64,000 nt of DNA, taken from contig CAYNGD010000006.1 of the NCBI GenBank assembly GCA_964396965.1, positions 8,771 through 72,770 on the forward strand. Reading direction: 5' to 3'. The stretch is from an uncultured Dehalococcoidales bacterium (GTDB lineage Bacteria; Chloroflexota; Dehalococcoidia; Dehalococcoidales; BS750m-G39). Below are positions 1-60,445 of the stretch, piece after piece (position 1 is the stretch's first letter; the number at the start of each line of letters is the position of its first letter). Both the position numbers and the translations under genes were made by a program. The notes under the pieces were generated by a model. It saw only the letters and a program-made list of their open reading frames with translations. It had not been told where the DNA came from and ran no database searches.

Positions 1-416
1 TGCTCGACAAAGGTATCCAGCAGGTAGATAGGGGTACGGTCACCCAGCTGCTTCTGCCCCTCTTCCAGATGAGTCAATAGCTTTTCTCCATCCCAGTCGG
101 GCTTTATATGTATCGCCTTTATCAGCGGTTTTTCTATCTGGCGGCAGTACTCCCAGCCTTCGCCACCGCTGAGTTGCACCAGGTCAAGATTGCAGTCAGC
201 CGCCACCCTATTTACCTCGGCGGCGGGCGTGTTGGCGAATACCCCGACCACCGGCAGATTATGTTTTTTGACCTCTTCGGCTATCTGCCGAGCCTGCTCA
301 TAGCTGATCTGCCGGGGGCTGGGGGCAAAGACCACCCCGATAAAATCGGCCCGGGCCTCTATCGCCGCCCGGGCGTAAGCCACTTCAGTAACGCCGCATA
401 TCTTAATTTTGGTCAA
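1..416 (-). CDS. trpF: Phosphoribosylanthranilate isomerase, partial (C-terminus lies beyond the left edge)
   Basis: Absent from the ORF track because it runs off the window. Minus-strand translation from TTG at 416 reads (M)TKIKICGVTEVAYARAAIEARADFIGVVFAPSPRQISYEQ...DLVQLSGGE, which shows PRAI-like KICG and DFIGxVF motifs. The TTG overlaps the trpC stop (TTGA). Position fits trpEGDCF order. Confidence 0.8.
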   Translation of the reverse strand, partial: MTKIKICGVTEVAYARAAIEARADFIGVVFAPSPRQISYEQARQIAEEVKKHNLPVVGVFANTPAAEVNRVAADCNLDLVQLSGGEGWEYCRQIEKPLIKAIHIKPDWDGEKLLTHLEEGQKQLGDRTPIYLLDTFVE

Positions 417-1183
417 AGCAGCTCCTTTATCTTGGCGGTTACGTTATCGGCGCCGACCAGCGCCTCGCCAACCAGCATGGCGTTGACCCTCCATTCTTTC
501 AGCTTCCCGACCTCCTCCCGCCCCTTAATGCCGCTCTCGCTGACCACGATTCTGCCCCGGGGGATGGCGGGGCGAAGCTGGCCGGTAATGTTTATATCTA
601 CCTTCATGGTATCCAGGTCACGGTTATTAATGCCGATTATCCTGATGTCATGGGCCAGCGCCCTCTTGAGCTCGCTCCGGTTGTGCACCTCGACCAGGCA
701 CTGCATCCCCAGGGAGTGGCTCAGGGAGAGCAGCTCCTCAAGCCCGGCATCATCCAGTATGGCCACTATCAGGAGCACGGCGTCGGCTCCCCAGGCGCAC
801 GATTCAAATATCTGGTAGGGCTTCAGGATAAAGTCCTTTCTCAGCAGCGGGATATGGGGCAGAGCCCGCTTGGTAGACTCAAGGTCTTCCCGGCTGCCCT
901 TAAAATAGCGCGGCTCGGTAAGCACCGATATTGCCGCTGCTCCGCCCTTGGCGTAGCTTCTGGCCAGCCTGACCGGGTCGAGGTCGGCCTGTATCAACCC
1001 TCTGGAGGGCGAGGCCCGCTTGACCTCTGCGATGAGACGGAGGCCTTCGCCGCTGATGGCTTTGGCCAAATCCAGGGGCGCCGGCCTCTCTATAATGGCC
1101 GCCCTGAGCTTGGGCAGGGGGAAGGCCTTCTGCCTCCGCTCAACCTCTTTCAGCTTTTCGGCAATAATATCATCCAGAAACAT
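413..1183 (-). CDS. trpC: Indole-3-glycerol phosphate synthase
   Basis: 256 aa ORF with LIAEVKRASPS, LTEPRYFKGS, LLRKDFI and IGINNRDL motifs typical of IGPS. Lies in the trp operon. Confidence 0.9.
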   Translation of the reverse strand: MFLDDIIAEKLKEVERRQKAFPLPKLRAAIIERPAPLDLAKAISGEGLRLIAEVKRASPSRGLIQADLDPVRLARSYAKGGAAAISVLTEPRYFKGSREDLESTKRALPHIPLLRKDFILKPYQIFESCAWGADAVLLIVAILDDAGLEELLSLSHSLGMQCLVEVHNRSELKRALAHDIRIIGINNRDLDTMKVDINITGQLRPAIPRGRIVVSESGIKGREEVGKLKEWRVNAMLVGEALVGADNVTAKIKELL

Positions 1184-1188
1184 GGCTA

Positions 1189-2220
1189 TTACCTGTAACT
1201 TTGACTCAGTTTGATTAGACTCTGAAGCTTTTCCAGCGCCCGCCCGCTGTCTATCGTTTCTTCGGCTATCTCGGCGCCTGCCTTGAGGGCGGGCAGCCCG
1301 GAGCTGTTTTTAGTGCGGCTGCCGACGGCGATGCCGGCGGCGGCGTTCATAATCACCGCGTCTCTTCTCGGTCCCCTCTCCCCCTCCAGCACCGCCCGCA
1401 GTATGGCTGCGTTCTCCTGAGGGGTGCCCCCGGCAAGAGTATTTAGTCCGGCCATTCCAAGCCCGAAGTCCTCCGGCGATATTTGGTAGTCGGTAATCTT
1501 ACCGTCATTAAGTTCCCAGACACGTGACAGGCCGGACACCGAGATTTCATCCATCCCATTCAGGCTATAGACGACCAGGGCGTGCCTTGAGCCCAGGCGC
1601 TGGAGCACCTGCGCCATCTTTTCGCCCAGTTCCTGGCTGGCCACGCCCAGAACAATGGAATCGGCCAGCGCCGGGTTGGTCAGCGGGCCGAGGATATTGA
1701 ATACAGTCCTTATGCCCAGCTCGCGGCGGGGGGCGGCGGCGAACTTCATCGCCGGGTGGAAGAGAGGGGCGAACATGAAGCCGATGCCGACACGCTCGAT
1801 GCATTCCCTTACCTGGTTTGCGTCCAGCTCTATTTTCACCCCCAGCGCCTCCAGGACATCGGCGCTGCCGCACCGGCTGGTCATGGCCCGGTTATTGTGC
1901 TTGGCCACCTTTATCCCGGCGCCGGCGGCAACAAAGGCGGCGGCGGTGGAGATGTTAAAGCTTTTGGAGTTATCGCCACCGGTGCCGACGATATCAATCA
2001 CCGGCCCGTCTGTCTCCACGCGGATTGACTTGGCCCGCATGACGCTGGCCAGCCCGGCAATCTCGTCGGCGGTCTCGCCTTTTATTCTCAGGGCGGTAAC
2101 AAAAGCGCCGAACTGGGCGGTGGTTAGCTGGCCGGTGGTCATCTCCTTCATCACCTCAGCCGCCTGCTCCATAGTCAGGGAATGCCCGTCCACCAGCAGG
2201 CTGATGGCTTCTTTAATCAT
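1189..2220 (-). CDS. trpD: Anthranilate phosphoribosyltransferase
   Basis: 343 aa with DIVGTGGD and KHNNRAMTSRCGSADVLEALG motifs. Lies in the trp operon. Confidence 0.92.
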   Translation of the reverse strand: MIKEAISLLVDGHSLTMEQAAEVMKEMTTGQLTTAQFGAFVTALRIKGETADEIAGLASVMRAKSIRVETDGPVIDIVGTGGDNSKSFNISTAAAFVAAGAGIKVAKHNNRAMTSRCGSADVLEALGVKIELDANQVRECIERVGIGFMFAPLFHPAMKFAAAPRRELGIRTVFNILGPLTNPALADSIVLGVASQELGEKMAQVLQRLGSRHALVVYSLNGMDEISVSGLSRVWELNDGKITDYQISPEDFGLGMAGLNTLAGGTPQENAAILRAVLEGERGPRRDAVIMNAAAGIAVGSRTKNSSGLPALKAGAEIAEETIDSGRALEKLQSLIKLSQSYR

Positions 2221-2804
2221 TTTTCTACCTCACCCAGGTTATTTAGTTTTAGGAAGTTCCTCAATATGTCCTTGCCGTTCTGGGTCATAAAGGACTCGGG
2301 GTGGAACTGCACCCCCTCCACCGGGTATTTACGGCGGCGCAGCCCCATGATCGTCCCGTCCTCGGTCCAGGCGGTTATCTCCAGACAGTCCGGCAGGTTT
2401 TCGCGGGCGACCATCAGTGAGTGATAGCGGATGGCGGGGAAGGGATTAGGCAGGCCGTGAAAGACGCCGCTATCGTTATGGTAGATAAGTGAAGACTTGC
2501 CATGCATAATCGCCTTGGCCGGGCCGACGCTGCCCCCGTAGCTGTAGCCGAGGCACTGGTGTCCCAGGCAGACGCCTAGTATAGGCAGCCTCTCCCCGAA
2601 CTGCCTGATGACGTCGTTGGAGATACCGGCGTTTAAGGGGGTGGAGGGGCCGGGTGAGATGACGATGCGCTCCGGCTTCATCCTTTCGATTTCGTCCAGC
2701 GTTATCTTGTTATTGCGGACGACCAGAACCTCTTCCCCCAGCTCGCTCAAATACTGGAAGAGGTTGTAGGTGAAGCTGTCGTAGTTATCAATCAGCAGCA
2801 GCAT
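2217..2804 (-). CDS. trpG: Anthranilate synthase component II (glutamine amidotransferase)
   Basis: 195 aa class-I GATase with PILGVCLGHQ (catalytic Cys) and GVQFHPES. Overlaps trpD and trpE by a few nt. Confidence 0.9.
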   Translation of the reverse strand: MLLLIDNYDSFTYNLFQYLSELGEEVLVVRNNKITLDEIERMKPERIVISPGPSTPLNAGISNDVIRQFGERLPILGVCLGHQCLGYSYGGSVGPAKAIMHGKSSLIYHNDSGVFHGLPNPFPAIRYHSLMVARENLPDCLEITAWTEDGTIMGLRRRKYPVEGVQFHPESFMTQNGKDILRNFLKLNNLGEVEK

Positions 2805-4239
2805 GGCTAATCTCCGTAGCCTCGGCCTGCTCGATGGCTTTTATCAGGGCTCCGGCCTTGTTCATGGTCTCTTCATATTCCCGCTCAGGAACGCTGTCAT
2901 AGACGATGCCGGCGCCGGCCTGGATATGGGCGGTGCCGTTTTGGGTGACGATAGTCCTTATAGTTATGGCGGTGTCCATTCCGCCGGAGAAGCTGAAGTA
3001 GCCAACGCAACCGGCGTAGGGGCCCCTTTTGTCCGGCTCAAGCTCGGCGATGGCCTCCATGGCCCGTATCTTGGGTGCCCCGGAGACGGTTCCAGCGGGG
3101 AAACAGGCGCGCAGGGCATCGAAGGTGGTGAGTTCAGGTCTTAACCTGCCTTCGACATTGGTGACCAGGTGCATGACGTGGGAGTAGCGCTCAACATCCA
3201 TAAGCTCGCTGACCCTGACCGTCCCCGGCACGCTCACCCGCCCGATGTCATTTCTCCCCAGGTCAACCAGCATGATGTGCTCGGCGCGCTCCTTCTCGTC
3301 GGCGCGCAGTTCTTCTTCCAGGCGTTTATCTTCCTCCGGCGTTTTACCCCGAGGCCGTGTCCCGGCCAGGGGGCGGGTGGTCACCGTACCGTTAACCGCC
3401 CTGACCAGGATTTCGGGCGACGAGCCGATAAGCTGGAAGTCCTTGAAGTCCAGGAAGAACATGTAGGGCGAGGGGTTGATGCGTCTTAGGGCTTGGTAGA
3501 TGTCTAGGGGTGAGGCGGTGGTGGAGCGGCTCAGGCGCTGGGAGAGCACAATCTGTATGGCCTCGCCCTCGGTGATATACTGCTTTGCTTTCTTAACATT
3601 GGCCTCGAACTTGGCCCTGGTCAGATTGGACGAGATTTGGGCTGGTCTATCTGATTTCAGTGGTTGGGGATATTTAATGGGCTGCCTGAGTCTGTCGGCC
3701 AGTTCCTCTATCCTCTCTATCGCTTTCTGGTAGGCGCTTTCGGCGGTACCGTCGGGGCGGGCGCAGCTTGCGATTTTAATCTTGTTATTGGCGTGGTCGA
3801 AGATGAGCAGGCTATCAACAAAGATAAAGACCGCTTCCGGCAGCTTCAGCGGGTCGGAGTCCGGCGAAGGGAGTTCCTCAAAGCGCCTTACCGTTTCGTA
3901 GGCAAGGTAGCCGACGGCGCCGCCGCTGAAGTCGGGCAGGCCGCCCAGCGGCGCCAGCCGGTGCTTTTTCATCTCCCCGGCGATGAGCTTTAACGGGTCG
4001 GTCTTATCCCCCTCTCTGGTGCTGAGCACTCTATAAGGCTCGGTGCCGACAAAGCTGTAGCGCGCCGCCTTCCGACTATCCTCCACGCTCTCCAGGAGAA
4101 AACCGTAATCGCCGCGTTTCACCTTTAGTAGGGCCGAGACCGGCGTCTCGCTACCGGCGGCAACCTCCCGATAGACGGGCACTAGGCAGCCCGGCTCTCT
4201 CAGAGCTTTAAATTCTTCCATTGTCGGCTGGTACATCAT
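2788..4239 (-). CDS. trpE: Anthranilate synthase component I
   Basis: 483 aa with chorismate-binding motifs LAGTRPRG, AEHIMLVDLGRND, GAPKIRAME and RGPYAGCVGY. Confidence 0.92.
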   Translation of the reverse strand: MMYQPTMEEFKALREPGCLVPVYREVAAGSETPVSALLKVKRGDYGFLLESVEDSRKAARYSFVGTEPYRVLSTREGDKTDPLKLIAGEMKKHRLAPLGGLPDFSGGAVGYLAYETVRRFEELPSPDSDPLKLPEAVFIFVDSLLIFDHANNKIKIASCARPDGTAESAYQKAIERIEELADRLRQPIKYPQPLKSDRPAQISSNLTRAKFEANVKKAKQYITEGEAIQIVLSQRLSRSTTASPLDIYQALRRINPSPYMFFLDFKDFQLIGSSPEILVRAVNGTVTTRPLAGTRPRGKTPEEDKRLEEELRADEKERAEHIMLVDLGRNDIGRVSVPGTVRVSELMDVERYSHVMHLVTNVEGRLRPELTTFDALRACFPAGTVSGAPKIRAMEAIAELEPDKRGPYAGCVGYFSFSGGMDTAITIRTIVTQNGTAHIQAGAGIVYDSVPEREYEETMNKAGALIKAIEQAEATEISHAAAD

Positions 4240-4572
4240 AAATTCTCCAATAAAAAAACCTCTCGCCTTAGGGGCGAGAGGTTAATCCTTCGCGGTGCCA
4301 CCCTAGTTGATTGCCAAAAAGGCAACCATCTCTCTTCGGGTACAGCCTTGGCGATACCCTGGGCTTGCTAACGGTGCCCTTCCGTCAAAGCCTACTCGGT
4401 CATCCCTTTCGGTTTGCGGCTCCCGAGTCCATTCAGCCCCGGCGCTGGCGCCGGTTTCCACCACAAGGCCCAGAAAAATCTCCGATTTTCCCGGGGACCC
4501 TCATCCGGCTCTCTGCCGCCCCGTTCTGGAGCCTACTAGTCTCGTTCTCAGCCTTTGTGCCATATTCAGTTT
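4240..4572 (-). promoter_or_regulatory. T-box riboswitch leader, tryptophan specifier (UGG)
   Basis: Minus strand shows an AGAGA box, a specifier loop GAA-UGG-A (UGG = 4431..4429), an AGUA box, and the conserved T-box AGGGUGGCACCGCG (4304..4291), which competes with the 5' arm of the terminator. The UGGC bulge fits an NCCA end with discriminator G, as in tRNA-Trp. Confidence 0.85.
4252..4282 (-). terminator. Intrinsic terminator of the T-box leader
   Basis: Minus strand reads CCUCUCGCC-CCUAA-GGCGAGAGG followed by UUUUUUU, about 20 nt before the trpE RBS/ATG. Confidence 0.8.
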
Positions 4573-4721: not shown

Positions 4722-4794
4722 GCCCGAGTGGCGCAATGGCAGCGCAACCGACTTGTAATCGGTAGGTTAGCGGGTTCGACTCCCCTCTCGGGCT
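4722..4794 (+). tRNA. tRNA-Thr (anticodon UGU)
   Basis: Acceptor GCCCGAG/CTCGGGC, D arm GCGC-AATGGCA-GCGC, anticodon arm ACCGA-CTTGTAA-TCGGT, and a TTCGACT T-loop. One imperfect pair in the T stem. No encoded CCA. Confidence 0.85.
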
Positions 4795-4814
4795 GGGATT
4801 TACTGGCGATGTGG

Positions 4815-4899
4815 GGAGGGGTGCCGGAGTGGTTAATCGGAGCAGACTGTAAATCTGCCGCCTGAAATGGCTACGCAGGTTCGAATCCTGCCCCCTCCA
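4815..4899 (+). tRNA. tRNA-Tyr (anticodon GUA), long variable arm
   Basis: Acceptor GGAGGGG/CCCCTCC, anticodon loop CTGTAAA, long variable arm, and T arm GCAGG-TTCGAAT-CCTGC. Confidence 0.9.
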
Positions 4900-4940
4900 C
4901 TGTAGCGTAAAAACTAGAAATATGGTATCTTGTTCATAGT

Positions 4941-5013
4941 GCCCACATAGCTCAGTCGGTAGAGCACCATCTTGGTAAGATGGGGGTCACCAGTTCGAAT
5001 CTGGTTGTGGGCT
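4941..5013 (+). tRNA. tRNA-Thr (anticodon GGU)
   Basis: Acceptor GCCCACA/TGTGGGC, D arm AGCTCAGTCGGTAGAGC, anticodon loop CTTGGTAAG, and T arm CCAGTTCGAATCTGG. Confidence 0.9.
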
Positions 5014-12598: not shown

Positions 12599-12650
12599 TC
12601 TGCTATAATAATACAAAATATATAAAATATTCCGGTGACAGCGGGTGCCG

Positions 12651-12774
12651 TCAGGGCTTAATAGACTGCCTGCCGAGGAGATAGAAGGCTTGAAGGTTAA
12701 GTCCTTGTGCGGCAGGCGCAGGGACTTGCTTTTTTAGGCGGATATCAAGTAGTGTTAATCGGGGGTTAAGGGAG
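12651..12774 (+). promoter_or_regulatory. Putative rplJ (L10) leader / attenuator
   Basis: Hairpin AAGTCCTTG...CAGGGACTT (12699..12727) followed by TTTTTT (12730..12735). Upstream CTGCCTGCCG can pair alternatively with CGGCAGGCG. Sits immediately before the rplJ RBS. Confidence 0.45.
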
Positions 12775-17435: not shown

Positions 17436-17572
17436 TATTCACCCCATCCCCCTTTATCCCCCTTCCCCTAGAGGGGAAGGGGGAAGTGATTTTAAGAGGG
17501 GGCATTAGCCCCCTCTCTATTTTTCTCCCCCTTTCCTTTCCAAGGGGGATTAAGGGGGTGAGGTTGCTAGAT
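17436..17572. repeat. Cluster of three G/C-tract hairpins (repeat copy R1, divergent member of the intergenic repeat family)
   Basis: Three hairpins: CCCCCTTCCCCT/AGGGGAAGGGGG palindrome, GAGGGGGC-ATTA-GCCCCCTC, and CCCCCTT...AAGGGGG. Flanked by TTCACCCCATCCCCC and GGGGGTGAGG. Confidence 0.6.
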
Positions 17573-17592
17573 AATCTCAATGGTCCTGAGTG

Positions 17593-17622
17593 TTGACAAA
17601 CTTTACCTCTATGTGATAGATT
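17593..17622 (+). promoter_or_regulatory. Sigma-70-type promoter of leader L1
   Basis: TTGACA (17593..17598), an 18 nt spacer, then TAGATT (17617..17622). Confidence 0.5.
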
Positions 17623-17629
17623 AAACGCG

Positions 17630-17818
17630 ATATGTTAAGTCAGGCTGTCTCCTGGAGTTTATTTGCCGATTTCGCCTTTACAGGGCGCACCCGGTGCGCT
17701 TGGGGGGCAGCTTGTTTGAAAATTTAAGGCTATTTAAGATATAAAGAAATCCAGAAGAGACCCTCCCAGGCGGAGGGATTTTTGTTTATTAAGGGAACTA
17801 ACCATAAGGAGGGGTAGC
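17630..17818 (+). promoter_or_regulatory. Structured 5' leader L1 with terminator/antiterminator (unclassified cis-regulatory RNA candidate)
   Basis: Terminator CCCTCC-CAGGC-GGAGGG plus ATTTTTGTTT (17761..17790). Upstream GCTTGGGGGG (17698..17707) is complementary to the terminator 5' arm. Paralogous to L2. Confidence 0.5.
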
Positions 17819-19027
17819 ATGGCTGGGCCTTTAGACGGGGTCAGGGTGGTGGAGATAACCATGTTTCAGCAGGGGCCGGTGGCCGGTATGAGGTTGGGTG
17901 ACCTGGGTGCCAAGGTGATTAAGGTTGAGGCTAAGACCGGAGACCCAGGTAGAGGGATGATGAGGATGGTCGGCGTCGATGCCGGCCTAAAGGGGCGAAA
18001 CTATTACTTTGAGAGCAATAACCGCAACAAGAGGAGCATCGTCCTTGACCTTAAGACGAGAAAGGGGATGAAGGTATTCTTAAAGCTGATTGACCGGGCT
18101 GATGTCTTTCTGACCAACATGAGCATCGAGGCACCGCAGAGGATGGGCATCAGCCCCGAGGTGTTGCTCAAGAGAAATCCACGGTTGATCTATGCCCATG
18201 CCTCCGGATGGGGCCGTAAAGGCCCGGATGCCAGCGAGCTTTCCTTCGACTATACCGGCATTGCCCGGTCGGGGACGATGATGATGTGTGGGGAGAGGGG
18301 TGATCCGCCGGGAATCCTGATACCGGGTATGGGTGATGAGCAGGGTGGGCTTATCTGCGCCTGGGCGGTGACCGCCGCCCTCTATGCACGGGAGAAGACA
18401 GGCCGGGGGCAGCTGGTCGATACCTCTTTGATGGGCAGCCTGATTTCCCTGCACGGGGTCAGCTTCTCGGCGCCTGGGGTTCTGGGACAGGAGTTCCCCA
18501 GACTACTCAGGTCGGAAGCGGGCAACCCGATTTATAACCACTATGGGTGTAAGGACGACAAATGGATTGTCTTGGCTCACCTCCAGCCCGACCGGTACTG
18601 GCCCAATGTCTGCCGGGCGATGGGGCTGGAGGAGCTGGAGCATGACCCCAAATTTAGCACGATAGAAGCCAGGCACGATAATGCCAGGGAGCTGGTGGCT
18701 ATCCTGGACGAGAGGTTCGCCACCAGGACCAGGGATGAATGGATGGAGATTTTTAAGAGGGAGGATGTAATCTATACCCCGGTCCAGTCAGCCAGCGAGG
18801 TCTTTGAGGACGGACAGGCGCTGGCCAATGACTATATCATCCCGGTTGACCATCCGGTCTGGGGCAGGATAAAGATGCTGGGCTTCCCCTGGACATTCCA
18901 CGAGACACCAGCCTCGGTGCAGAGGGAGGCCCCCGAGCTCGGCCAGCACACCGAGGAGATTCTGCTGGAGCTGGGCTATAGCTGGGAGGATATCGCTGCT
19001 TTAAAGAATGAAGAGGCGATACCTTAA
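17819..19027 (+). CDS. Class III (CaiB/BaiF family) CoA-transferase
   Basis: 402 aa with LDGVRVVEITMFQQGPVAGMRLGDLGAKVIKVE at the N-terminus and family-typical length. Confidence 0.88.
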   Translation: MAGPLDGVRVVEITMFQQGPVAGMRLGDLGAKVIKVEAKTGDPGRGMMRMVGVDAGLKGRNYYFESNNRNKRSIVLDLKTRKGMKVFLKLIDRADVFLTNMSIEAPQRMGISPEVLLKRNPRLIYAHASGWGRKGPDASELSFDYTGIARSGTMMMCGERGDPPGILIPGMGDEQGGLICAWAVTAALYAREKTGRGQLVDTSLMGSLISLHGVSFSAPGVLGQEFPRLLRSEAGNPIYNHYGCKDDKWIVLAHLQPDRYWPNVCRAMGLEELEHDPKFSTIEARHDNARELVAILDERFATRTRDEWMEIFKREDVIYTPVQSASEVFEDGQALANDYIIPVDHPVWGRIKMLGFPWTFHETPASVQREAPELGQHTEEILLELGYSWEDIAALKNEEAIP

Positions 19028-19047
19028 AGGCTGCTAAAAGGATGAGT

Positions 19048-19076
19048 TTGACAATAGCGCTTTTATATGTTAAGAT
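19048..19076 (+). promoter_or_regulatory. Sigma-70-type promoter of leader L2
   Basis: TTGACA (19048..19053), a 17 nt spacer, then TAAGAT (19071..19076). Confidence 0.5.
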
Positions 19077-19082
19077 TAGGTT

Positions 19083-19295
19083 TGCTTAAATATGGATGAG
19101 AATAAGATGTTAAATATCGCCTTCCAGGACTATTATTACGCCTATTATTTTACACCGAAAGGTGTGCTTGGGAGGTTTGCGGCCTGAAGCAGGGTAGTTA
19201 AGAGCTAAAAATAAACAGGAAAGCTAAAAGGAACCCTCCCAAGCGGGAGGGTTCTCCGTTTTTAGGAATATAACCAAAGGAGGACTAAAAATCAA
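19083..19295 (+). promoter_or_regulatory. Structured 5' leader L2, paralogue of L1
   Basis: Terminator AACCCTCCC-AAGC-GGGAGGGTT plus CTCCGTTTTT (19232..19263). Upstream GCTTGGGAGG (19166..19175) is an exact complement of CCTCCCAAGC in the terminator 5' arm. Confidence 0.5.
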
Positions 19296-20237
19296 GTGAC
19301 CGAAAGAATGGTTAAAAGAAGGTATGAAATCTTTACCATTGCCCCCAACTTTTACCAGCTGGGTACCCCCTCCTATCCGGCCTATCTGACGATGGGGGAT
19401 AAAGGGATGATTATCGAGGGGGGCACCGGGGCTACCTTTCCCATTATCGTTGCCCAGCTCCGGGAGCTGGGCAACGAGCCGGAGCGGATAGAATACGTTG
19501 CCCTTACCCATACCCACCCCGACCATTTCGGCGCCGTACCGCACCTAAAGAAGCTGTGGCCTCATCTGAAGGTTATCGCCAGCGACCTGGCGGCTAAGCT
19601 GCTGCAGAAGGAAGAAGTCATCAAGGACTTTGTCCGCATGGATCGCACCATCGCCGAGATTCTGCTGGTCAAGGGCGATATCGACTGGTGGCCCGTCGAG
19701 CTGGAAAACCCGGTCTTCAAAATTGATAGGATTGTCGGCGAGGGGGATAAGATAGACCTCGGTTCGGGTATGGTATGGACCGTTTATGAAACGCCGGGGC
19801 ATTCGCCCTGCCATATCTCCTTTCACAACGAAAGGGATGGCATACTGGTTATCGGGGACGCCACCGGGATATACGAGCCCGACAAAGAGGTCTTCTGGCC
19901 TAACTATTTCCAGTCCCTGGAGGAGTACTGCAACAGCATTCGCAAGCTGGCGGTGCTGCCGGCTAGGATAGGCGCCCGCAGCCACGGCGGTGTTGTCGGA
20001 GGGGAACCCGGGCACTATTTGCGGAGGGTTATAAAAGCTACCGAGGCTTATCACCGCGAGCTGATGGACCGGCTGGCTGGCGGTGAGAGTCCTGAGGCGA
20101 TTGCCCTGGATAAGGCGAAGTGGGTATATACCTTCACCAACCTACAGCCCTTTAAGCTGATACATGCCATGACCGGGCTTACCCTCAGGCTTTCTCAGGC
20201 GGCGGATGGTAAAGAAGGCCTGTTTGGTGTCCCCTGA
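19296..20237 (+). CDS. MBL-fold metallo-hydrolase
   Basis: 313 aa with the HTHPDH (HxHxDH) motif plus later His/Asp ligands. Start codon is uncertain because the RBS is 12 nt from the GTG. Confidence 0.8.
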   Translation: MTERMVKRRYEIFTIAPNFYQLGTPSYPAYLTMGDKGMIIEGGTGATFPIIVAQLRELGNEPERIEYVALTHTHPDHFGAVPHLKKLWPHLKVIASDLAAKLLQKEEVIKDFVRMDRTIAEILLVKGDIDWWPVELENPVFKIDRIVGEGDKIDLGSGMVWTVYETPGHSPCHISFHNERDGILVIGDATGIYEPDKEVFWPNYFQSLEEYCNSIRKLAVLPARIGARSHGGVVGGEPGHYLRRVIKATEAYHRELMDRLAGGESPEAIALDKAKWVYTFTNLQPFKLIHAMTGLTLRLSQAADGKEGLFGVP

Positions 20238-20279
20238 ACTCAGGCAAGGTGTTATAATACAGCGAAGAGGAGTAACGTT

Positions 20280-21437
20280 ATGCCAAGTGAGGCTATTGGC
20301 GGGCTGATGGCAGCCGATAAATACTACCAGGACTACGGCGCCAGGGCCAGAGAGCTTAAGAAGCAGGGGAAAAAGATAATAGGCTACCTGTGCGCCTTTA
20401 CCCCGGTGGAGATCATCACCGCCGCCGGCCTAGTGCCTTTCCGGATAAAAGGAGATGTTAACGAGCCCATCACTAAGGCCGATACTGAGATGGAGACCAT
20501 CGTCTGCCCCCTGGTGCGGAGCTGCTTTGATATGGCGCTTAAGGGAAACTATGAGTTCCTTGACGGCATCGTCATCCCCCACGCCTGTGACAGCATCTCC
20601 CGGACCTACGATGTCTGGAAGTATTCACTGAACCTCCCCTACTCCCATTTCATCAATATGCCCCACAGCACCGACGGGCCGTCACTCGAATTTTACAAGG
20701 CGCTGCTGGGCACGTTAAGGAAGAGCCTGGCCAAGTTTGCCGGAAGAGAGATTTCCGACCAGGACTTGAGAGAGGCAATAAAGCTCTACAACCAGAACCG
20801 GGCTAAAGTGCGGGAGCTGTATGAGCTGAGGAAGGCCTCGCCGCCCCTGATATCGGGTGCGGAGATAACCAGGGTGTTGGTAGGGGCAATTAGCCTGCCG
20901 GTTGAGGAGGCCACCCGGCTCGTTGACAGCGTTATCGAAGAGGTCAAGCAGCGGCCGCCGCTACCGGCCAAGGCAGCCCGGCTGATGGTGGTTGGTGCCG
21001 AGGTTGACGATATTGCCTTCATCGACCTCATCGAGGACAGCGGGGCCTGGGTGGTGGCCGACGACCTCTGCCCCGGGGCGAGGGAGTTCTGGGCCGATGT
21101 TGAGGTCACCAAGAATCCGATTGACGGCATCGCCGAGCGGTATTTAAGGAAGATAAACTGCGGCCGGACCTTCCGTGAGAGAAAAGGGAGCTATGACGAC
21201 TATCTCGAGGAGAGGTTCGGGCATATCGGGCGTTTTATTAAAGAATTTAAGGTGGATGGGGTGGTGCTCTATATTTACAAGTACTGCGACCCTTACGGCT
21301 TCGACGTGCCGCCGATGAAGGGCTACATCGAATCTAAGGGAACGCCGGTGCTCTACCTTGAGGACGAGTATTCCATGTCCACCATCGGCAGGCTCAGGAC
21401 CAGAATTCAGGCCTTCCTGGAATTGATTGCTAAATAG
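20280..21437 (+). CDS. Benzoyl-CoA reductase / 2-hydroxyacyl-CoA dehydratase family subunit (BzdN/BcrC/HgdB-like)
   Basis: 385 aa HGD-D-type sequence (IGYLCAFTPVEIITAAGLVPFRI, conserved Cys in CPLVRSC, PHACDS). Confidence 0.85.
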   Translation: MPSEAIGGLMAADKYYQDYGARARELKKQGKKIIGYLCAFTPVEIITAAGLVPFRIKGDVNEPITKADTEMETIVCPLVRSCFDMALKGNYEFLDGIVIPHACDSISRTYDVWKYSLNLPYSHFINMPHSTDGPSLEFYKALLGTLRKSLAKFAGREISDQDLREAIKLYNQNRAKVRELYELRKASPPLISGAEITRVLVGAISLPVEEATRLVDSVIEEVKQRPPLPAKAARLMVVGAEVDDIAFIDLIEDSGAWVVADDLCPGAREFWADVEVTKNPIDGIAERYLRKINCGRTFRERKGSYDDYLEERFGHIGRFIKEFKVDGVVLYIYKYCDPYGFDVPPMKGYIESKGTPVLYLEDEYSMSTIGRLRTRIQAFLELIAK

Positions 21438-21458
21438 TAGTTTATAAGGAGAACGGTT

Positions 21459-22796
21459 ATGACCGAGGAGAAGAAACCGGAGGAGAGAAAAAAGAGGAGG
21501 ACGGCCACCGAGGCGGCGGCCAAGATAGGGCCGATGGCCAAGGCGATGAACGCCGCCGTGCTTCAGGCGAGCCAGGATGGCGAGCCGATAGCCTACTCCT
21601 TTATCTACAGCGGCTATGACGAAATCATCCGGGCGATGGATATCGTCCCCGCCTGGACGGAGAACTACGCCGGAATCTGCGGTGCCAAGCGCGATGCCCA
21701 GCGGTTCCTGGAGAGGGCGGAGGGGGAGAACTTCTCCCGCTCCCTCTGCACCTACGCCCTCTGCGGCCTGGGCTTTGACAACTGGCGCGAGGAGCTGGGG
21801 GAGATGCCCCTGGATGCCCCCTGGGGTGGGCAGGCCCGGCCCACGGTGATGCTGGGCAGCGGCCAGGTCATCTGCGACCCCAGGTACAAGTGGTACCAGG
21901 CGGCCCAGCACTATATGACCGACGTGCCGGTCTATGTCGGCGGGCTGCCCTATCCCCCCTATGAGGAGGACTACGACTACCGCGAGGTGCAGGACTACTA
22001 CGTGAAATATATCGTCGGGGAGCTGCGGGGGCTGGTCGAGTTTCTGGAGAAGAATACTAATAGAAAGATGGACTGGGAGCGCTTGAGCCAAGTGGTTGAC
22101 ATCAGCGACCGCACCTGGAACACGATTTCCGAGGCCTACGACCTGCGCAAGGCGGTGCCCTGCCCGATGGGCACCGGCGACGCCATGAATACCATGGTGC
22201 CGATGACCTTCATGATGGGAACCCAGGAGGCCCTGGACTTCTTCAAGGACCTATATGATGAGCTTAAGTGCAAGATAGCCAACAAAGAGGGCGTAATTCC
22301 CGACGAGAAATACCGGCTGCTCTGGGGTGGGGGGCTGCCCTCGTGGTTTGCCCTGACTGATTTTAACTACTTCAACAGCAGGGGGGCGGTCTTTCCCGCC
22401 GAGACTACCTACCGGCTGCTGGAGCCGGTCTATAAGCTGGACTTACCTAAGGTCAGCGACCCACTGGAGCACCTGGCCTGGCGCTGGGTGAGGTACTGGA
22501 CCTGTCGTCATGACAGGGCCAGGAAACGCCCGGGCTCTACCCCTGAGGTTGAGCGCCTTATTGAGTATATCGAGGAATACAAGATAGACGGGGTGGTGAT
22601 GCACGAGGCCTTCTCCTGCCGCAGCTGGCACCCCGGCCTGATATGGCAGCTTAACCAGCTCAAACGGGTCTATAGTGATATACCATCGCTGGTTCTGGAG
22701 AGCGATATCGTTGACATCAGCTCCTATAACGAGGCCGACACCAGGGCCAGGATAGATGCCTTCATCGATACCCTGGAGGCGGTCAAGAGCCGGTGA
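21459..22796 (+). CDS. Benzoyl-CoA reductase / 2-hydroxyacyl-CoA dehydratase family subunit (BzdO/BcrB/HgdA-like)
   Basis: 445 aa, second HGD-D-type subunit with conserved Cys residues (SLCTYALCG, AFSCRSW). Tightly linked to its neighbours. Confidence 0.85.
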   Translation: MTEEKKPEERKKRRTATEAAAKIGPMAKAMNAAVLQASQDGEPIAYSFIYSGYDEIIRAMDIVPAWTENYAGICGAKRDAQRFLERAEGENFSRSLCTYALCGLGFDNWREELGEMPLDAPWGGQARPTVMLGSGQVICDPRYKWYQAAQHYMTDVPVYVGGLPYPPYEEDYDYREVQDYYVKYIVGELRGLVEFLEKNTNRKMDWERLSQVVDISDRTWNTISEAYDLRKAVPCPMGTGDAMNTMVPMTFMMGTQEALDFFKDLYDELKCKIANKEGVIPDEKYRLLWGGGLPSWFALTDFNYFNSRGAVFPAETTYRLLEPVYKLDLPKVSDPLEHLAWRWVRYWTCRHDRARKRPGSTPEVERLIEYIEEYKIDGVVMHEAFSCRSWHPGLIWQLNQLKRVYSDIPSLVLESDIVDISSYNEADTRARIDAFIDTLEAVKSR

Positions 22797-23638
22797 AAAG
22801 CCAGTATTTCGCCGGGGTTGACATCGGTTCCACCATGACCAAGGTGGTCATCATGGACCAGGCGACCCTGGCCTCGGTTATCGGCCCCACCGGCCCCGAG
22901 CACCGCAAGCTGGCCAACCGGGTGATGGAGGAGGCGCTAGGCAAGGCCGGACTTGCCTTCGAGGAGATAACCTACCTGGTGGCCACCGGCTACGGGCGGA
23001 TCAACGTCCCCTTCGCCGACAGGCAGATAACCGAGATATCCTGCCACGCCCGGGGGGTGGCCCACCTGCTGCCCGGGGTGAGGACGGTGATTGACATCGG
23101 CGGCCAGGACAGCAAGGGAATCAAGCTCAAAGACGGGCGGGCGGTGGACTTCGTTATGAACGACAGGTGCGCCGCCGGCACCGGCCGCTTTCTGGAGGTG
23201 ACCGCCGAGAGCCTCGGCGTCAGCCTGGAGGAGATGGGTAAATTAGCGCTGGAGGCTAAGAATAAGGTGGAGATAGGCAGCACCTGCACCGTCTTCGCCG
23301 CCCAGGAGGTAGTGGCCAAGCTCTCCGAGGGGGCGGCGCTGGCCGATATCATCGCCGGCCTGCACGAGGCGATTGCTACCCGGATATACGGCATGGTCCG
23401 GCGCCTGAAGATAGAGAGGGAGGTGGCCCTGACCGGCGGCGGGGCTAAGAATATTGGCCTAGTTAAGTCTATGGAAGCTAAACTGGGCTTCCCGGTGCTG
23501 CTGCCACCGGAGCCGCTGCTCACCGGGGCTATCGGGGCGGCGCTGCTGGGTGGGGATATAGTCAAGGAGGCGGAGAAGAAGGGAGAGAAACTAAAGAAAA
23601 GCCCCCGTCGCCTCACTGAGGCTACCTTGTTTACATAA
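22793..23638 (+). CDS. BcrAD/BadFG/HgdC-type ATPase (electron-activating subunit 1)
   Basis: 281 aa with GVDIGSTMTK, DIGGQDSK, cluster Cys motifs RCAAGTGRFLE and STCTVFA. GTG start overlaps the upstream stop (GTGA). Confidence 0.88.
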   Translation: MKSQYFAGVDIGSTMTKVVIMDQATLASVIGPTGPEHRKLANRVMEEALGKAGLAFEEITYLVATGYGRINVPFADRQITEISCHARGVAHLLPGVRTVIDIGGQDSKGIKLKDGRAVDFVMNDRCAAGTGRFLEVTAESLGVSLEEMGKLALEAKNKVEIGSTCTVFAAQEVVAKLSEGAALADIIAGLHEAIATRIYGMVRRLKIEREVALTGGGAKNIGLVKSMEAKLGFPVLLPPEPLLTGAIGAALLGGDIVKEAEKKGEKLKKSPRRLTEATLFT

Positions 23639-23653
23639 TATAGGAAGAAAATC

Positions 23654-24439
23654 ATGATATATGTTGCCGGGATTGATATCGGCTCCGCCTTCGCCAAGGC
23701 GGTGATAATGGCGGAGAATAAAATAGTCGCCCACCGGGTAAAGCCCTCCGGCGGGAACTACAGGCTCACCGCCGGGCAGGTTATGGATGAGGCTCTTGAC
23801 AAGGCCAGGCTATCTCAAAAGGATATAGCCGGTACCGTAGCCACCGGCTACGGCGCATCCAGCGTCTCTTCGGCCAGCCAGACAGCCTCGGATATATCCT
23901 GCCTGGCTAGGGGGGTGCACTATCTCTTTCCTGGTGCCCGCACCGTCATTGATATCGGCGGGCAGTTCACCCGAGTGCTTAAATTAGACGGGCGGGGGAG
24001 GGCCACCTCCTTCCTGCTCAGCGAGAAGTGCGCCGCCGGTAGCGGGCGATTTCTGCAGGTGATTGCCAGGGTGCTTCAGGTTAACCTTGATGACATCGGC
24101 GAGCTATCGCTAAAGTCCAAGAAAAGGGTTGACTTCAACACCGGCTGCGCCGTCTTCGCAGAGTCGGAGGCGGTATCCCGCATCGCCGAGGGGGCGGCCA
24201 AGGAGGATATTCTGGCCGGTCTGCACCGGGCTCTGGCGGCTAAGATTCAGGCCATGGTGGCCAGGCTCGGCCTTGAGCCTGAGTGTGCTGTGGTGGGGGG
24301 TGGGGCCAAGGATATCGGGCTGGTCAGGAGCATAGAGGCCGGGCTGGAGGGTAAACTGCTGATTCCCGACGAGCCGCAGATTGTGGCCGCCCTGGGGGCA
24401 GCCCGGCTGGCCGGGGAAAAGGTCGATCAGGGGGACTGA
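23654..24439 (+). CDS. BcrAD/BadFG/HgdC-type ATPase (electron-activating subunit 2)
   Basis: 261 aa with GIDIGSAFAK, DIGGQFT, KCAAGSGRFLQ and TGCAVFA. Distinct paralogue of the preceding gene. Confidence 0.88.
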   Translation: MIYVAGIDIGSAFAKAVIMAENKIVAHRVKPSGGNYRLTAGQVMDEALDKARLSQKDIAGTVATGYGASSVSSASQTASDISCLARGVHYLFPGARTVIDIGGQFTRVLKLDGRGRATSFLLSEKCAAGSGRFLQVIARVLQVNLDDIGELSLKSKKRVDFNTGCAVFAESEAVSRIAEGAAKEDILAGLHRALAAKIQAMVARLGLEPECAVVGGGAKDIGLVRSIEAGLEGKLLIPDEPQIVAALGAARLAGEKVDQGD

Positions 24440-24440
24440 T

Positions 24441-25832
24441 ATGATTGATAAGAAGATTATAACCGAACTACGCAAGACGGTAGGCGAGAACGCCGTCATG
24501 ACCTCAAAGGAGGACCTCAATGCCTACTCCTACGACGGCACCACTACCTGGGCTCACCCGCCCGACGTGGTGGTGCTGCCGACCACTGCCGAGCAGGTCT
24601 CCCACATCCTGAAGCTGGTTAACGAGCACAGGGTCCCGGTCACCCCCAGGGGGGCCGGCACCAACCTCAGTGGCGGCTCCATCCCGATAAAGGGGGGTAT
24701 CGTCCTCTGCACCACCAGGATGGATAAAATACTGGACATAAACAAGGCCAATCTGACCGCCACCGTCGAGCCCGGCGTGGTGCTCCAGGACTTCAATCTG
24801 GCCCTGGCCAAGCAGGGGTTGTTCTATCCCCCCGACCCCCAGAGCTTCCTAGGCTGCACCCTGGGTGGCAACGTGGCCGAGAATGCCAGCGGCCCCTACT
24901 GCGTCAAGTATGGGGTAACCAAGCAGTACGTGTTGGGGCTGGAAGTGGTCCTGGCCAACGGCTACATCATGAAGCTGGGTGGGGTGACGGTCAAGAACCG
25001 CACCGGCTATGAGCTGATGATGCTGTTCACCGGCTCCGAGGGAACGCTGGGGGTAATCACCAAGATAACCCTCCGGCTGCTGCCGATGCCGCCGGCCAAC
25101 CAGACGGTGATGGCTGTCTTTGACGATGTGGCCGTCGGTGGGCAGGCGGTATCCGATATCATGGCCAGCGGGGTGGTGCCGGCCAAGGTCGAGTTCGTTG
25201 ATAACTTCGTCCTGAGGCGAATCGAGGAGATGACCCCGATGGGTCTGCCGGTGGAGGCCAAGGCGCTGCTGCTGATCCAGACCGATGGCTCGCCGGCGGC
25301 GGTTGAGGCCGAAACTAAGCAGATTGTTGAAATACTGAAGAAGAGCGGGGCCAAGGAGGTCAGGGTGGCCAAGGACGCTGCCGAGGCGGCGATGTACTGG
25401 AAGATGAGGAGCGCCGGCTATGCTGCTACCTTCGGTGCCGCCCATACCGTCATGACCGAGGACGTGACCGTGCCCCGGGACCGGATGGCCGAGTTCATCC
25501 ACAAGCTGGAGGAGATATCGGAGAGGACCGGCTTCTTTATCTGCTACCTGGGCCATGCCGGCGACGGCAATTTGCACCCATCGATATTCACCGATATCAG
25601 GAACGAGGAGGAGTTCGCCCGCGCCCAAAAGGCGATGGAGGAGATATTCGAGTCGGCGCTCTCGGTGGGCGGCGTCCTCTCCGGCGAGCACGGCATCGGT
25701 CTGGAGAAACAGCGCTTCCTCAAGCGGGCGATGGACCCGGTGGCCCTTGACCTGATGATAAAGATAAAGGGAATTTTGGACCCCAACCATATCCTCAACC
25801 CGGGCAAGATATGGGAAGAGGAAAGGGTTTGA
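24441..25832 (+). CDS. FAD-linked oxidase, GlcD / D-2-hydroxyacid dehydrogenase-like
   Basis: ATG 24441 lies 1 nt after the upstream stop (the track ORF from 24381 is an upstream extension). Shows an FAD PCMH domain (PRGAGTNLSGGSIP) and C-terminal GEHGIG. Confidence 0.88.
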   Translation: MIDKKIITELRKTVGENAVMTSKEDLNAYSYDGTTTWAHPPDVVVLPTTAEQVSHILKLVNEHRVPVTPRGAGTNLSGGSIPIKGGIVLCTTRMDKILDINKANLTATVEPGVVLQDFNLALAKQGLFYPPDPQSFLGCTLGGNVAENASGPYCVKYGVTKQYVLGLEVVLANGYIMKLGGVTVKNRTGYELMMLFTGSEGTLGVITKITLRLLPMPPANQTVMAVFDDVAVGGQAVSDIMASGVVPAKVEFVDNFVLRRIEEMTPMGLPVEAKALLLIQTDGSPAAVEAETKQIVEILKKSGAKEVRVAKDAAEAAMYWKMRSAGYAATFGAAHTVMTEDVTVPRDRMAEFIHKLEEISERTGFFICYLGHAGDGNLHPSIFTDIRNEEEFARAQKAMEEIFESALSVGGVLSGEHGIGLEKQRFLKRAMDPVALDLMIKIKGILDPNHILNPGKIWEEERV

Positions 25833-25833
25833 T

Positions 25834-27123
25834 ATGGCCAGGACCGAGCTGGACAAATACCAGCAGATAAAGAGGTTTGAGGACGACCTGGGCCAGTGCA
25901 TGAAGTGCGGCTTCTGCACCTTCTGGTGCCCGGTCTACCGGGAGGAGCGGGTAGAACCTTCGGTGGCACGGGGCAAGGACATGATGATAAGAGGGCTGCT
26001 GGCCGGTGAGCTGGATTATACTAAGGAGTATGCCGACCGCCTGAACCAGTGCACCCTCTGCATGGCCTGCACCGCCAACTGTCCGGCCAAGGCCAACATT
26101 CCCAACGTCATCGTCGCCGCCAGGGCGGACACGACCAAAGCTCGTGGCTTGAAGTTTCCCTATAATATCGTCTACCGCTGGCTGCTGCCCCGCCGGACGC
26201 TTTTCGGTGGCGTGGTCCGCTTCGCCTCCTGGCTCCAGGGTATCTTTATGCCCAGGACCGAGGGCACCATCCGGCATCTATCCCTGTTCCTCTCGGCGCT
26301 AGGCCGGGGCCGGAACATACCCCAGATTGCCCCCCACTTCCTGAGGCAAACGGTGCCGGTGGTGAATAAGCCGCCGGAAGGCGTTAAGACGGTGATGACG
26401 GTGGGCTATTTCACCGGCTGTATGACCGACTTCGTTCTGCCTGAGCTGGGAAGGCATATTATCGACTTCCTGACCCGGAACGGGGTCGAGGTCATCGTGC
26501 CCCGCGAGCAGGGCTGCTGCGGATCGCCGGTTTTCCTGGGGGCGGGTGACTTCGACACCGGCCGGAAGATGGCCGATAGCAACGTTAAGGCCTTTGAGGA
26601 GGTGGACTACGTGGTCACCGACTGTGCCACCTGTGTCTCGACGCTTAAGGACTACCCCAAATTTCTGGCCGATAGCCCGGAGCGGGAGGAGGCCTACAAG
26701 AAGTTCGCTGGCAAAATACTGGATATCTCCCAGTTCCTGGTTGACGTGCTGAAATTACCGGCGTCGGCCTATCAACCCTCGGCGGAAGCCAAAGGCAAGA
26801 AGGTCACCTGGCACGACCCCTGCCACCTCAGCCGTTATCTGGGGGTAACCAGCCAGCCCCGGCAGATTATAAGGTCGATACCCGGTGTGGAGTACATCGA
26901 GATGCCTAACGCTGACCGGTGCTGCGGCATGGCCGGGACCTTCAGCTTTTACTACTACGACCTGTCCAAGCAGATTGCCGATAAGAAGGTGGCGGCAATC
27001 AAGTCCACCGGGGCCGATATCGTCGTCACCGGCTGCCCCGGCTGTGAGATTCAGCTTATTGACAGCCTGCTGCGGAACAAGGTCCCGGTAGAGGTGATGC
27101 ACATTATGGAGCTGCTGGCCTGA
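25834..27123 (+). CDS. Fe-S oxidoreductase, GlcF/HdrD-like (2x[4Fe-4S] plus two CCG domains)
   Basis: 429 aa with CMKCGFCTFWCP, CTLCMACTANCP, CCGSP and CCGMAG. Confidence 0.88.
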   Translation: MARTELDKYQQIKRFEDDLGQCMKCGFCTFWCPVYREERVEPSVARGKDMMIRGLLAGELDYTKEYADRLNQCTLCMACTANCPAKANIPNVIVAARADTTKARGLKFPYNIVYRWLLPRRTLFGGVVRFASWLQGIFMPRTEGTIRHLSLFLSALGRGRNIPQIAPHFLRQTVPVVNKPPEGVKTVMTVGYFTGCMTDFVLPELGRHIIDFLTRNGVEVIVPREQGCCGSPVFLGAGDFDTGRKMADSNVKAFEEVDYVVTDCATCVSTLKDYPKFLADSPEREEAYKKFAGKILDISQFLVDVLKLPASAYQPSAEAKGKKVTWHDPCHLSRYLGVTSQPRQIIRSIPGVEYIEMPNADRCCGMAGTFSFYYYDLSKQIADKKVAAIKSTGADIVVTGCPGCEIQLIDSLLRNKVPVEVMHIMELLA

Positions 27124-60356: not shown

Positions 60357-60445
60357 CGGAGGGGGTGGGATTCGAACCCACGGCCCCGGTTTCCCGGAGC
60401 AACGGTTTTCAAGACCGTCACCATAAACCGCTCGGACACCCCTCC
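60357..60445 (-). tRNA. tRNA-Ser (anticodon UGA), long variable arm
   Basis: Minus strand shows acceptor GGAGGGG/CCCCTCC, D arm GTCCGAGCGG, anticodon loop CTTGAAA, a long variable arm, and T arm GTGGGTTCGAATCCCAC. Confidence 0.9.

Follow-up and report, generated by a model that had tools for sequence, protein, structure and literature searches.

The 64,000-nucleotide stretch of DNA analysed here (the window), from an uncultured Dehalococcoidales bacterium, carries two paralogous leaders of ~200 nt, each with its own promoter. The first (L1) precedes a CoA-transferase gene and the second (L2) an MBL/BzdNOPQ-like/GlcDF-like operon. Each leader is very probably a ribosome-mediated (leader-peptide) transcription attenuator of the trp/pheA type. 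Sequence comparison shows the open reading frames (ORFs) and three alternative helices, how far these are conserved, and the agreement of codon run with operon among paralogous copies; from these we infer translation of the leader ORF, ribosome stalling and termination itself.

The two leaders were present as claimed in the original prediction, which had suggested a dedicated cis-regulatory RNA or a protein-binding leader. Promoter and terminator scans recovered exactly the TTGACA-type promoters and premature terminators it had described, and alignment of the two leaders bore out its series of ordered shared blocks. The similarity of L1 and L2 is far beyond chance. The last block is shared as stated, but it is not identical, being AACCATAAGGAGG in L1 and AACCAAAGGAGG in L2 (one A fewer). 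The features of L1 are as follows:

17593..17622, + strand: promoter, with TTGACA at 17593-17598, an 18 nt spacer and a TG-extended TAGATT at 17617-17622 (consensus promoter scan).
17632..17727, + strand: leader ORF, opened by ATGTTAA at 17632 and reading MLSQAVSWSLFADFAFTGRTRCAWGAACLKI up to its stop codon; kept in all type-1 copies (described below).
17645..17657, + strand: segment 1 (CTGTCTCCTGGAG), the anti-antiterminator partner of segment 2 (folds, pair counts).
17685..17699, + strand: small G+C hairpin GCGCAC-CCG-GTGCGC, between the codon run and segment 2 (folds, pair counts).
17698..17710, + strand: segment 2 (GCTTGGGGGGCAG), with segment 1 and segment 3 as alternative partners (motif search, folds); the GCTTGGGRGG block reads GCTTGGGGGG here, at 17698.
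17761..17771, + strand: segment 3, CCCTCCCAGGC (folds).
17772..17777, + strand: segment 4, GGAGGG (folds).
17761..17790, + strand: terminator, with hairpin CCCTCC/GGAGGG (CCCTCCCAGGCGGAGGG, 17761-17777) and U-run ATTTTTGTTTATT to 17790 (terminator scan).

The corresponding features of L2 are:

19048..19076, + strand: promoter, with TTGACA at 19048-19053, a 17 nt spacer and a TG-extended TAAGAT at 19071-19076 (consensus promoter scan).
19107..19187, + strand: leader ORF, opened by ATGTTAA at 19107 and reading MLNIAFQDYYYAYYFTPKGVLGRFAA up to its stop codon; its Tyr runs are kept in all type-2 copies.
19118..19128, + strand: segment 1 (CGCCTTCCAGG), which pairs with segment 2 (folds).
19151..19166, + strand: small hairpin CACACC-GAAA-GGTGTG (folds).
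19166..19175, + strand: segment 2 (GCTTGGGAGG, the GCTTGGGRGG block, at 19166) (folds, motif search).
19234..19244, + strand: segment 3 (folds).
19230..19263, + strand: terminator, with stem GGAACCCTCCC-AAGC-GGGAGGGTTCT at 19230-19255 and tail CCGTTTTT to 19263 (terminator scan, folds).

Transcription of L1 is predicted to start at ~17629-17630, 2-3 nt 5' of the leader ATG, and homologous leaders show the same promoter layout. The predicted start of L2 is ~19083, and an additional in-frame ATG lies at 19092. The L1 peptide begins MLSQAVSWSLFADFAFTGRT…, with the regulatory codons W8 (17653-17655), F11 (17662-17664), F14 (17671-17673) and F16 (17677-17679), while the L2 peptide begins MLNIAFQDYYYAYYFTPKG… and contains the Tyr/Phe run YYYAYYF at 19131-19151. 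The small G+C hairpin of L1 may be a pause hairpin. The structural genes follow: in L1 the Shine-Dalgarno sequence AAGGAGGGG (17806-17814) and the CoA-transferase ATG at 17819, and in L2 a Shine-Dalgarno sequence at 19277-19284 and the GTG of the MBL gene at 19296.

Read against this anatomy, the shared blocks fall into three groups. The ATGTTAA box, TTATT and TTTACA belong to the leader ORF, supplying its start codon and its Tyr/Phe codons; CC.GGA, GCTTGGGRGG and CCCTCCCARGC are mutually exclusive pairing segments; and the last block is the Shine-Dalgarno region of the structural genes. In L2 the codon run begins 3 nt beyond segment 1; in L1 it overlaps that segment or comes after it. The stop codons lie 10-15 nt 3' of segment 2, an arrangement of codons and segments like that of the trp and pheA attenuators, and both leaders have an A-rich spacer separating segment 2 from segment 3. 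The 1:2 (anti-antiterminator), 2:3 (antiterminator) and 3:4 plus U-run (terminator) helices all appear in the folds, with energies of -30.0, -23.1 and -11.0 kcal/mol respectively in L1, and -20.1, -27.4 and -21.4 kcal/mol in L2. Between L1 and L2 the 2:3 helix changes from U-G to U-A and from G-U to A-U. The single-sequence folding z-score of L2 was -3.41; such scores were uninformative for either leader when taken alone. The predicted character of both leaders, as dedicated cis-regulatory elements with a premature terminator (17761-17790 and 19230-19263), is supported. The second half of that prediction, an RNA that binds a metabolite or a protein, is not supported, as the blocks appear to be leader-ORF codons and attenuator pairing segments.

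The family was then defined from related DNA. A CoA-transferase protein query gave 80 genome loci, mostly metagenome-assembled genomes of Dehalococcoidia. A strict regular expression found only 17 copies in these loci; a covariance model built on the OFF state (1:2 helix, small hairpin and terminator) doubled the count, giving 38 copies in the window and the 80 genome loci, all genome-locus copies being on the gene strand (loci were oriented on the CoA-transferase gene). The leaders thus recur upstream of homologous genes in related genomes, as the original prediction had expected. Metagenome contigs were pattern-scanned for segments 2, 3 and 4, yielding 120 stretches, of which 80 were taken as loci, and the covariance model found 78 copies in these. 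The total is 116 copies in Dehalococcoidia genomes and metagenomes, the window included, nearly all of them directly 5' of a gene. A sequence profile (nhmmer) made from metagenome copies only, and therefore containing no window sequence, matched the 64-kb window at 17618-17795 (E=1e-36) and 19089-19267 (E=4e-29). Motif searches, nhmmer and the covariance model with its filters off found no further copies in the window.

A leader ORF is a constant part of these copies. The start codon, ATG or GTG, stands at the same aligned column in every readable copy, and in 110 of the 110 unique copies with an aligned start codon the ORF runs for 19-37 codons, giving at least 19 stop-free codons in the ORF frame in all 110, against 19/110 in frame 1 and 77/110 in frame 2. 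Tyr, Phe and Trp account for 736 of 2973 leader ORF codons (24.8%), with synonymous codons mixed (TAT 249 and TAC 133; TTT 183 and TTC 76), and most copies have a GGGTG- or AAGG-type sequence resembling a Shine-Dalgarno site upstream of the leader ORF. Two peptide types recur around the CoA-transferase clusters. Type-1 peptides (L[YF][YF]x[DN]F[IV]F) always lie 5' of a CoA-transferase gene. Type-2 peptides, with runs of 5-8 Tyr/Phe (e.g. MINRIASQGYYYYYYFFAG), lie 5' of the next unit, headed by an MBL gene, the first HGD-D gene or a second CoA-transferase gene. In three loci with two CoA-transferases (L030, L037 and L039) a Phe-type leader stands before the first and a Tyr-type leader before the second, an arrangement that would fit substrate-specific enzymes.

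The first downstream gene was classified for all 116 copies, with the following result:

39 copies: DAHP synthase gene heading aroB-aroD-aroE-aroK-aroA-aroC-CM/PDT; W/Y/F runs such as WYYYYFAF (MLSHIVSPWYYYYFAFPERR, MLVYSSWRGLYYAYFTFPRR).
38 copies: CoA-transferase gene; type-1 or type-2 peptides.
11 copies: MBL gene; type-2 peptides.
7 copies: AMP-binding enzyme and LIV-type ABC transporter; ..YYRLEKxKFVFTKRT..
5 copies: class I/II aminotransferase; poly-Tyr, with 6-9 Tyr in 4/5, e.g. MLIYTTAHYYYYYYYYAFTGRT.
4 copies: HGD-D gene; type-2 peptides.
3 copies: pheS-pheT; F..NF.F, e.g. MRHYIVSYQFNTNFMFTRR.
2 copies: other LIV transporter genes; aromatic runs.
1 copy: TRAP DctP gene; YYYSYYY.
1 copy: ilvB-like gene; VNVIVVL, MCAYGISQVNVIVVLRAQ.
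5 copies: contig too short or unclassified; no peptide feature assigned.

The scaffold is the same throughout, and the codon run varies with the amino acid that the operon serves. Judged from the aligned copies, this is the signature of ribosome-mediated attenuation; a ligand- or protein-binding RNA could not explain it. The ilvB-like copy (L139:72-258), in which the scaffold carries a Val/Ile/Leu-rich peptide before an ilvB-like TPP enzyme, indicates that the family is not confined to aromatic amino acids. In the window the runs are W, F, F, F (L1) and YYYAYYF (L2), and they stand upstream of a cluster whose pathway product is unassigned. The suggestion that the two leaders serve a single pathway is not supported, the same scaffold also standing before the shikimate operon, pheST, aminotransferase, ilvB and transporter genes. 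One terminator/antiterminator scaffold is thus reused before at least nine operon types with only the codon run exchanged, a natural example of modular attenuator evolution.

In one locus, two divergent leaders with Tyr/Phe runs (L156:2023-2211, − strand, and L156:3808-3997, + strand) precede genes for TRAP-type DctP and LIV-type binding proteins. This pair suggests that transporters are part of the regulon.

Structural conservation was measured in an alignment of the genome set (A3) and one of the metagenome set (A4). The OFF structure was paired in 88.6% of cells in A3, compared with 50-70% in slid controls, and in 84.7% in A4, likewise above slid controls. In A4, 14 of 22 pairs had changed on both sides, compared with 8.2 ± 1.3 in shuffled alignments, and 0 of 500 shuffles reached the observed value. 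Of the eight terminator pairs, three were invariant in both alignments, and changes on both sides were seen in three (A3) and four (A4); the pair at columns 206/219 (segments 3/4), for example, was U-A in 21 and C-G in 13 copies of A3. The 2:3 helix was 89.9% paired, compared with 27-65% in slid controls, and had one covarying position (A-U 16, G-U 9, G-C 8); the segment 3 partner of this position itself covaries with segment 4 (U-A 21, C-G 13).

The key events in the proposed mechanism are as follows. Initiation: Transcription would start at the sigma-70-type promoter and the short ORF would be translated at once. Ample charged tRNA-Phe/tRNA-Tyr: The ribosome would pass the aromatic codons and reach the stop codon beside segment 2, leaving segment 2 either masked or back in its pairing with segment 1. 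Segments 3 and 4 would then fold as the terminator, and RNA polymerase would stop at the U-run (~17778-17790 in L1, ~19256-19263 in L2). Scarce charged tRNA-Phe/tRNA-Tyr: The ribosome would stall on the aromatic codons just 3' of segment 1 and cover that segment. Segment 2 would then be free to form the antiterminator with segment 3, allowing read-through into the genes. Specificity: L1 would respond mainly to Phe (plus Trp) and gate the CoA-transferase gene, resembling the pheST leaders, while L2 would respond mainly to Tyr and gate the MBL/BzdNOPQ-like/GlcDF-like operon.

The logic would be reversed if the leaders encoded a TnaC-type arrest peptide that senses free Tyr or Phe, abundance of which would induce a catabolic operon. 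We consider this improbable. It would suit the enzymes concerned, which belong to families known from anaerobic aromatic/amino-acid catabolism (BzdN-like, 2-hydroxyacyl-CoA-dehydratase-like and family III CoA-transferase). However, the same scaffold and codon runs stand before the shikimate operon and pheST, which are starvation-induced in every known system; no C-terminal arrest motif is conserved and stop positions vary. In addition, the geometry favours read-through on stalling, since the codon run lies directly 3' of segment 1 and the stop beside segment 2.

A metabolite-binding riboswitch or a leader bound by a regulatory protein, with the short ORF incidental, has very little probability. 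Such an element would share the terminator/antiterminator expression platform, and the lack of matches to known families and the presence of two copies in one gene cluster are also in keeping with it. What is conserved outside the helices, however, is an in-frame aromatic codon run with synonymous variation and whole-codon length changes, and this run switches to Phe, poly-Tyr or Val/Ile/Leu with the downstream operon, which is unexpected of a ligand pocket. Segments 2 and 3 are separated by 55 nt of A-rich, poorly conserved spacer, and TRAP-like, PyrR-like and ANTAR-like repeat motifs are absent from the leaders. That the ORFs instead encode functional small peptides, for example a Tyr-rich precursor modified by neighbouring iron-sulfur enzymes, is scarcely credible: although an ORF is found in every copy and radical-type enzymes adjoin it, the C-terminal halves are not conserved, the stop shifts from the hairpin loop to 10-25 nt past segment 2, the ORF overlaps RNA pairing segments, and the same ORF type precedes housekeeping genes (aro, pheST) with no modifying enzymes nearby.

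Several observations weigh against leader-peptide attenuation. The L1 leader ORF has no Shine-Dalgarno sequence and its ATG lies ~10 nt past the −10 box, so that a leaderless or near-leaderless translation start is required; this layout, with its predicted start, is kept in ~10 related copies. The L1 stop codon lies 15 nt beyond segment 2, which makes masking of segment 2 by the terminating ribosome only marginal, and for this leader the model therefore needs the 1:2 helix to form again. Folded as a single sequence, L1 did no better than shuffled sequence (z=-0.83). The F-x-F-T motif adjoins the conserved hairpin, so its conservation could be partly at the RNA level. In the family as a whole, covariation of the antiterminator (2:3) was modest, and the metagenome search pattern itself fixed segments 2 and 3. 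The controlled enzymes look catabolic rather than biosynthetic. Finally, three syntenic clusters (L026, L034 and L035) have no leader, implying that the attenuator was gained or lost within the lineage. In these clusters, where a ChlI-like gene is divergent from the CoA-transferase gene, the ~86 nt of intergenic DNA holds a promoter only.

The closest known systems are the E. coli pheL-pheA, pheM-pheST (Rfam Phe_leader, RF01859) and trpL leaders. These are alike in having a leader ORF with a cognate codon run, three exclusive helices (1:2, 2:3 and 3:4) and an intrinsic terminator before the first gene, and they give read-through when charged tRNA is scarce, the same logic as is proposed here. 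As the E. coli cases are outlined in PMC11802643, pheST is a target both there and in the Dehalococcoidia family. Similarity to the E. coli Phe_leader in sequence or covariance model is absent (22-24 bits against 55, over the terminator only), and the Dehalococcoidia family differs in its occurrence in Chloroflexota, its Tyr-dominated peptides and its use of one scaffold before many operons. The aro-operon copies have a parallel, likened by description and not by sequence, in the aroR-aroF DAHP-synthase operon of Corynebacterium glutamicum. There the aroR leader peptide upstream of aroF contains Phe-Tyr-Phe, with ribosome stalling at Phe/Tyr codons; the reported response is to Phe but not Tyr (Neshat et al. 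2014, as cited in PMC11802643). That system belongs to the Actinobacteria, and control of a CoA-transferase/BCR-like cluster by aroR is not known. According to a 2005 comparative survey of Actinobacteria, attenuators serve His, Thr and Phe in other bacteria, where Tyr is under T-boxes; upstream of tyrosine operons the survey saw no RNA element (PMC1262725).

T-box leaders also sense tRNA charging and also switch between terminator and antiterminator. Unlike these, L1 and L2 have neither a specifier loop nor the T-box sequence, and sensing is proposed to occur via the translating ribosome. The window contains a T-box leader of its own, in a unit that spans 413-4558 with the T-box included:

4267-4558, − strand: T-box leader before trpEGDC (Rfam scan, 97.7 bits).
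2788-4239, − strand: trpE.
2217-2804, − strand: trpG.
1189-2220, − strand: trpD.
413-1183, − strand: trpC.

The position of this T-box before trpE-G-D-C would place the Trp branch under T-box control and the Tyr/Phe-linked operons under leader peptides in the same organism. Three tRNA genes at 4722-5013 adjoin the T-box, and a further tRNA gene lies at 60357-60445; neither these nor the L10 leader mentioned below are out of the ordinary.

In agreement with the original prediction, neither leader matched any Rfam family at its gathering score. The best score was that of Phe_leader (RF01859), 22.3-24.1 bits against a gathering score of 55 and over the terminator only; no other leader family was among the matches listed. 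Riboswitch classes and T-box gave no match in either leader at the gathering score or at E<=10, while the same scan recovered the T-box at 4267-4558 and a ribosomal protein L10 leader at 12614-12740 in the window. Permissive matches (E<=10) were at chance level and were rejected: Phe_leader and STnc370 on the terminators, and microRNA models on G/C hairpins at 17440-17580. Literature searches found no prior description of this attenuator family, only analogues in other phyla, and leader-peptide attenuation in Chloroflexota was not found in the searchable literature. By its sequence this is a new family, in Dehalococcoidia, of a classical mechanism; a reading of the leaders as a novel riboswitch is unsupported. 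The mechanism itself is textbook, and the added interest lies in the Tyr specificity, the modular reuse and the clue to function.

That clue concerns the genes that the two leaders are proposed to control:

17819..19027, + strand: family III CoA-transferase gene, proposed to be controlled by L1.
19296..27123, + strand: operon proposed to be controlled by L2.
19296-20237, + strand: MBL-fold gene, the first of the L2 operon.

The L2 operon encodes, in order, a PqsE-like MBL protein of thioesterase type, two HGD-D subunits (BzdN/O-like), two BcrA/D-type ATPases, a GlcD-like FAD dehydrogenase and a CCG/4Fe-4S subunit; the last gene ends at 27123 and uvrA is next. All cluster proteins fell below the equivalog cut-offs of NCBIfam. 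In a sequence search of the PDB, the nearest solved relative of the first HGD-D subunit was BzdN (1e-56), ahead of a 2-hydroxyacyl-CoA dehydratase beta subunit (2e-43), and that of the MBL protein was PqsE, a 2-aminobenzoylacetyl-CoA thioesterase. The solved relatives of the CoA-transferase were several family III CoA-transferases, including benzylsuccinate CoA-transferase. In the long loci no other aromatic-metabolism genes lay beside the cluster, only conserved MFS/ChlI-like synteny.

In marine Dehalococcoidia, gene sets of the bzdNOPQ type have been interpreted as evidence of benzoate degradation (e.g. PMC5736913). The attenuators place this BCR-like cluster, usually read as aromatic degradation, in a Tyr/Phe-starvation regulon with the shikimate operon, aminotransferase, pheST and transporters. 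Control of aromatic amino-acid synthesis genes by the same attenuator family hints that the cluster helps to supply Tyr/Phe. It is conceivable, though we hold it only tentatively, that the cluster is a Tyr/Phe supply pathway and not one of aromatic degradation, and that one modular attenuator family induces it in concert with the shikimate operon, aminotransferase and transporters. A speculative route, consistent with every gene, would convert aryl-acrylates or aryl-lactates into aryl-pyruvates, which would then be transaminated to Phe/Tyr. The clostridial aryl-lactate pathway is known, and the salvage idea is the same route in reverse. Regulation thus offers a functional clue for a widespread, uncharacterised cluster of the BCR/2-hydroxyacyl-CoA-dehydratase type, whose role is directly testable.

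Two further elements lie near the leaders. Between the divergent ChlI/ComM-like gene and the L1 promoter, window positions 17440-17580 hold dense G/C-rich hairpins (e.g. 17457-17484 and 17495-17516); a similar element lies upstream of the CoA-transferase gene in L010, with no repeat elsewhere in the window. In clusters without an MBL gene, a conserved stretch of ~65 nt (GATGATGGCACACGGTTGAAAAGTGACTAGCTAATACCTTAAACTAGGCAT) lies between the type-2 terminator and the first HGD-D gene, at these approximate positions:

L052:7451-7520: conserved ~65 nt stretch.
L054:2176-2245: conserved ~65 nt stretch.
L057:3639-3705: conserved ~65 nt stretch.

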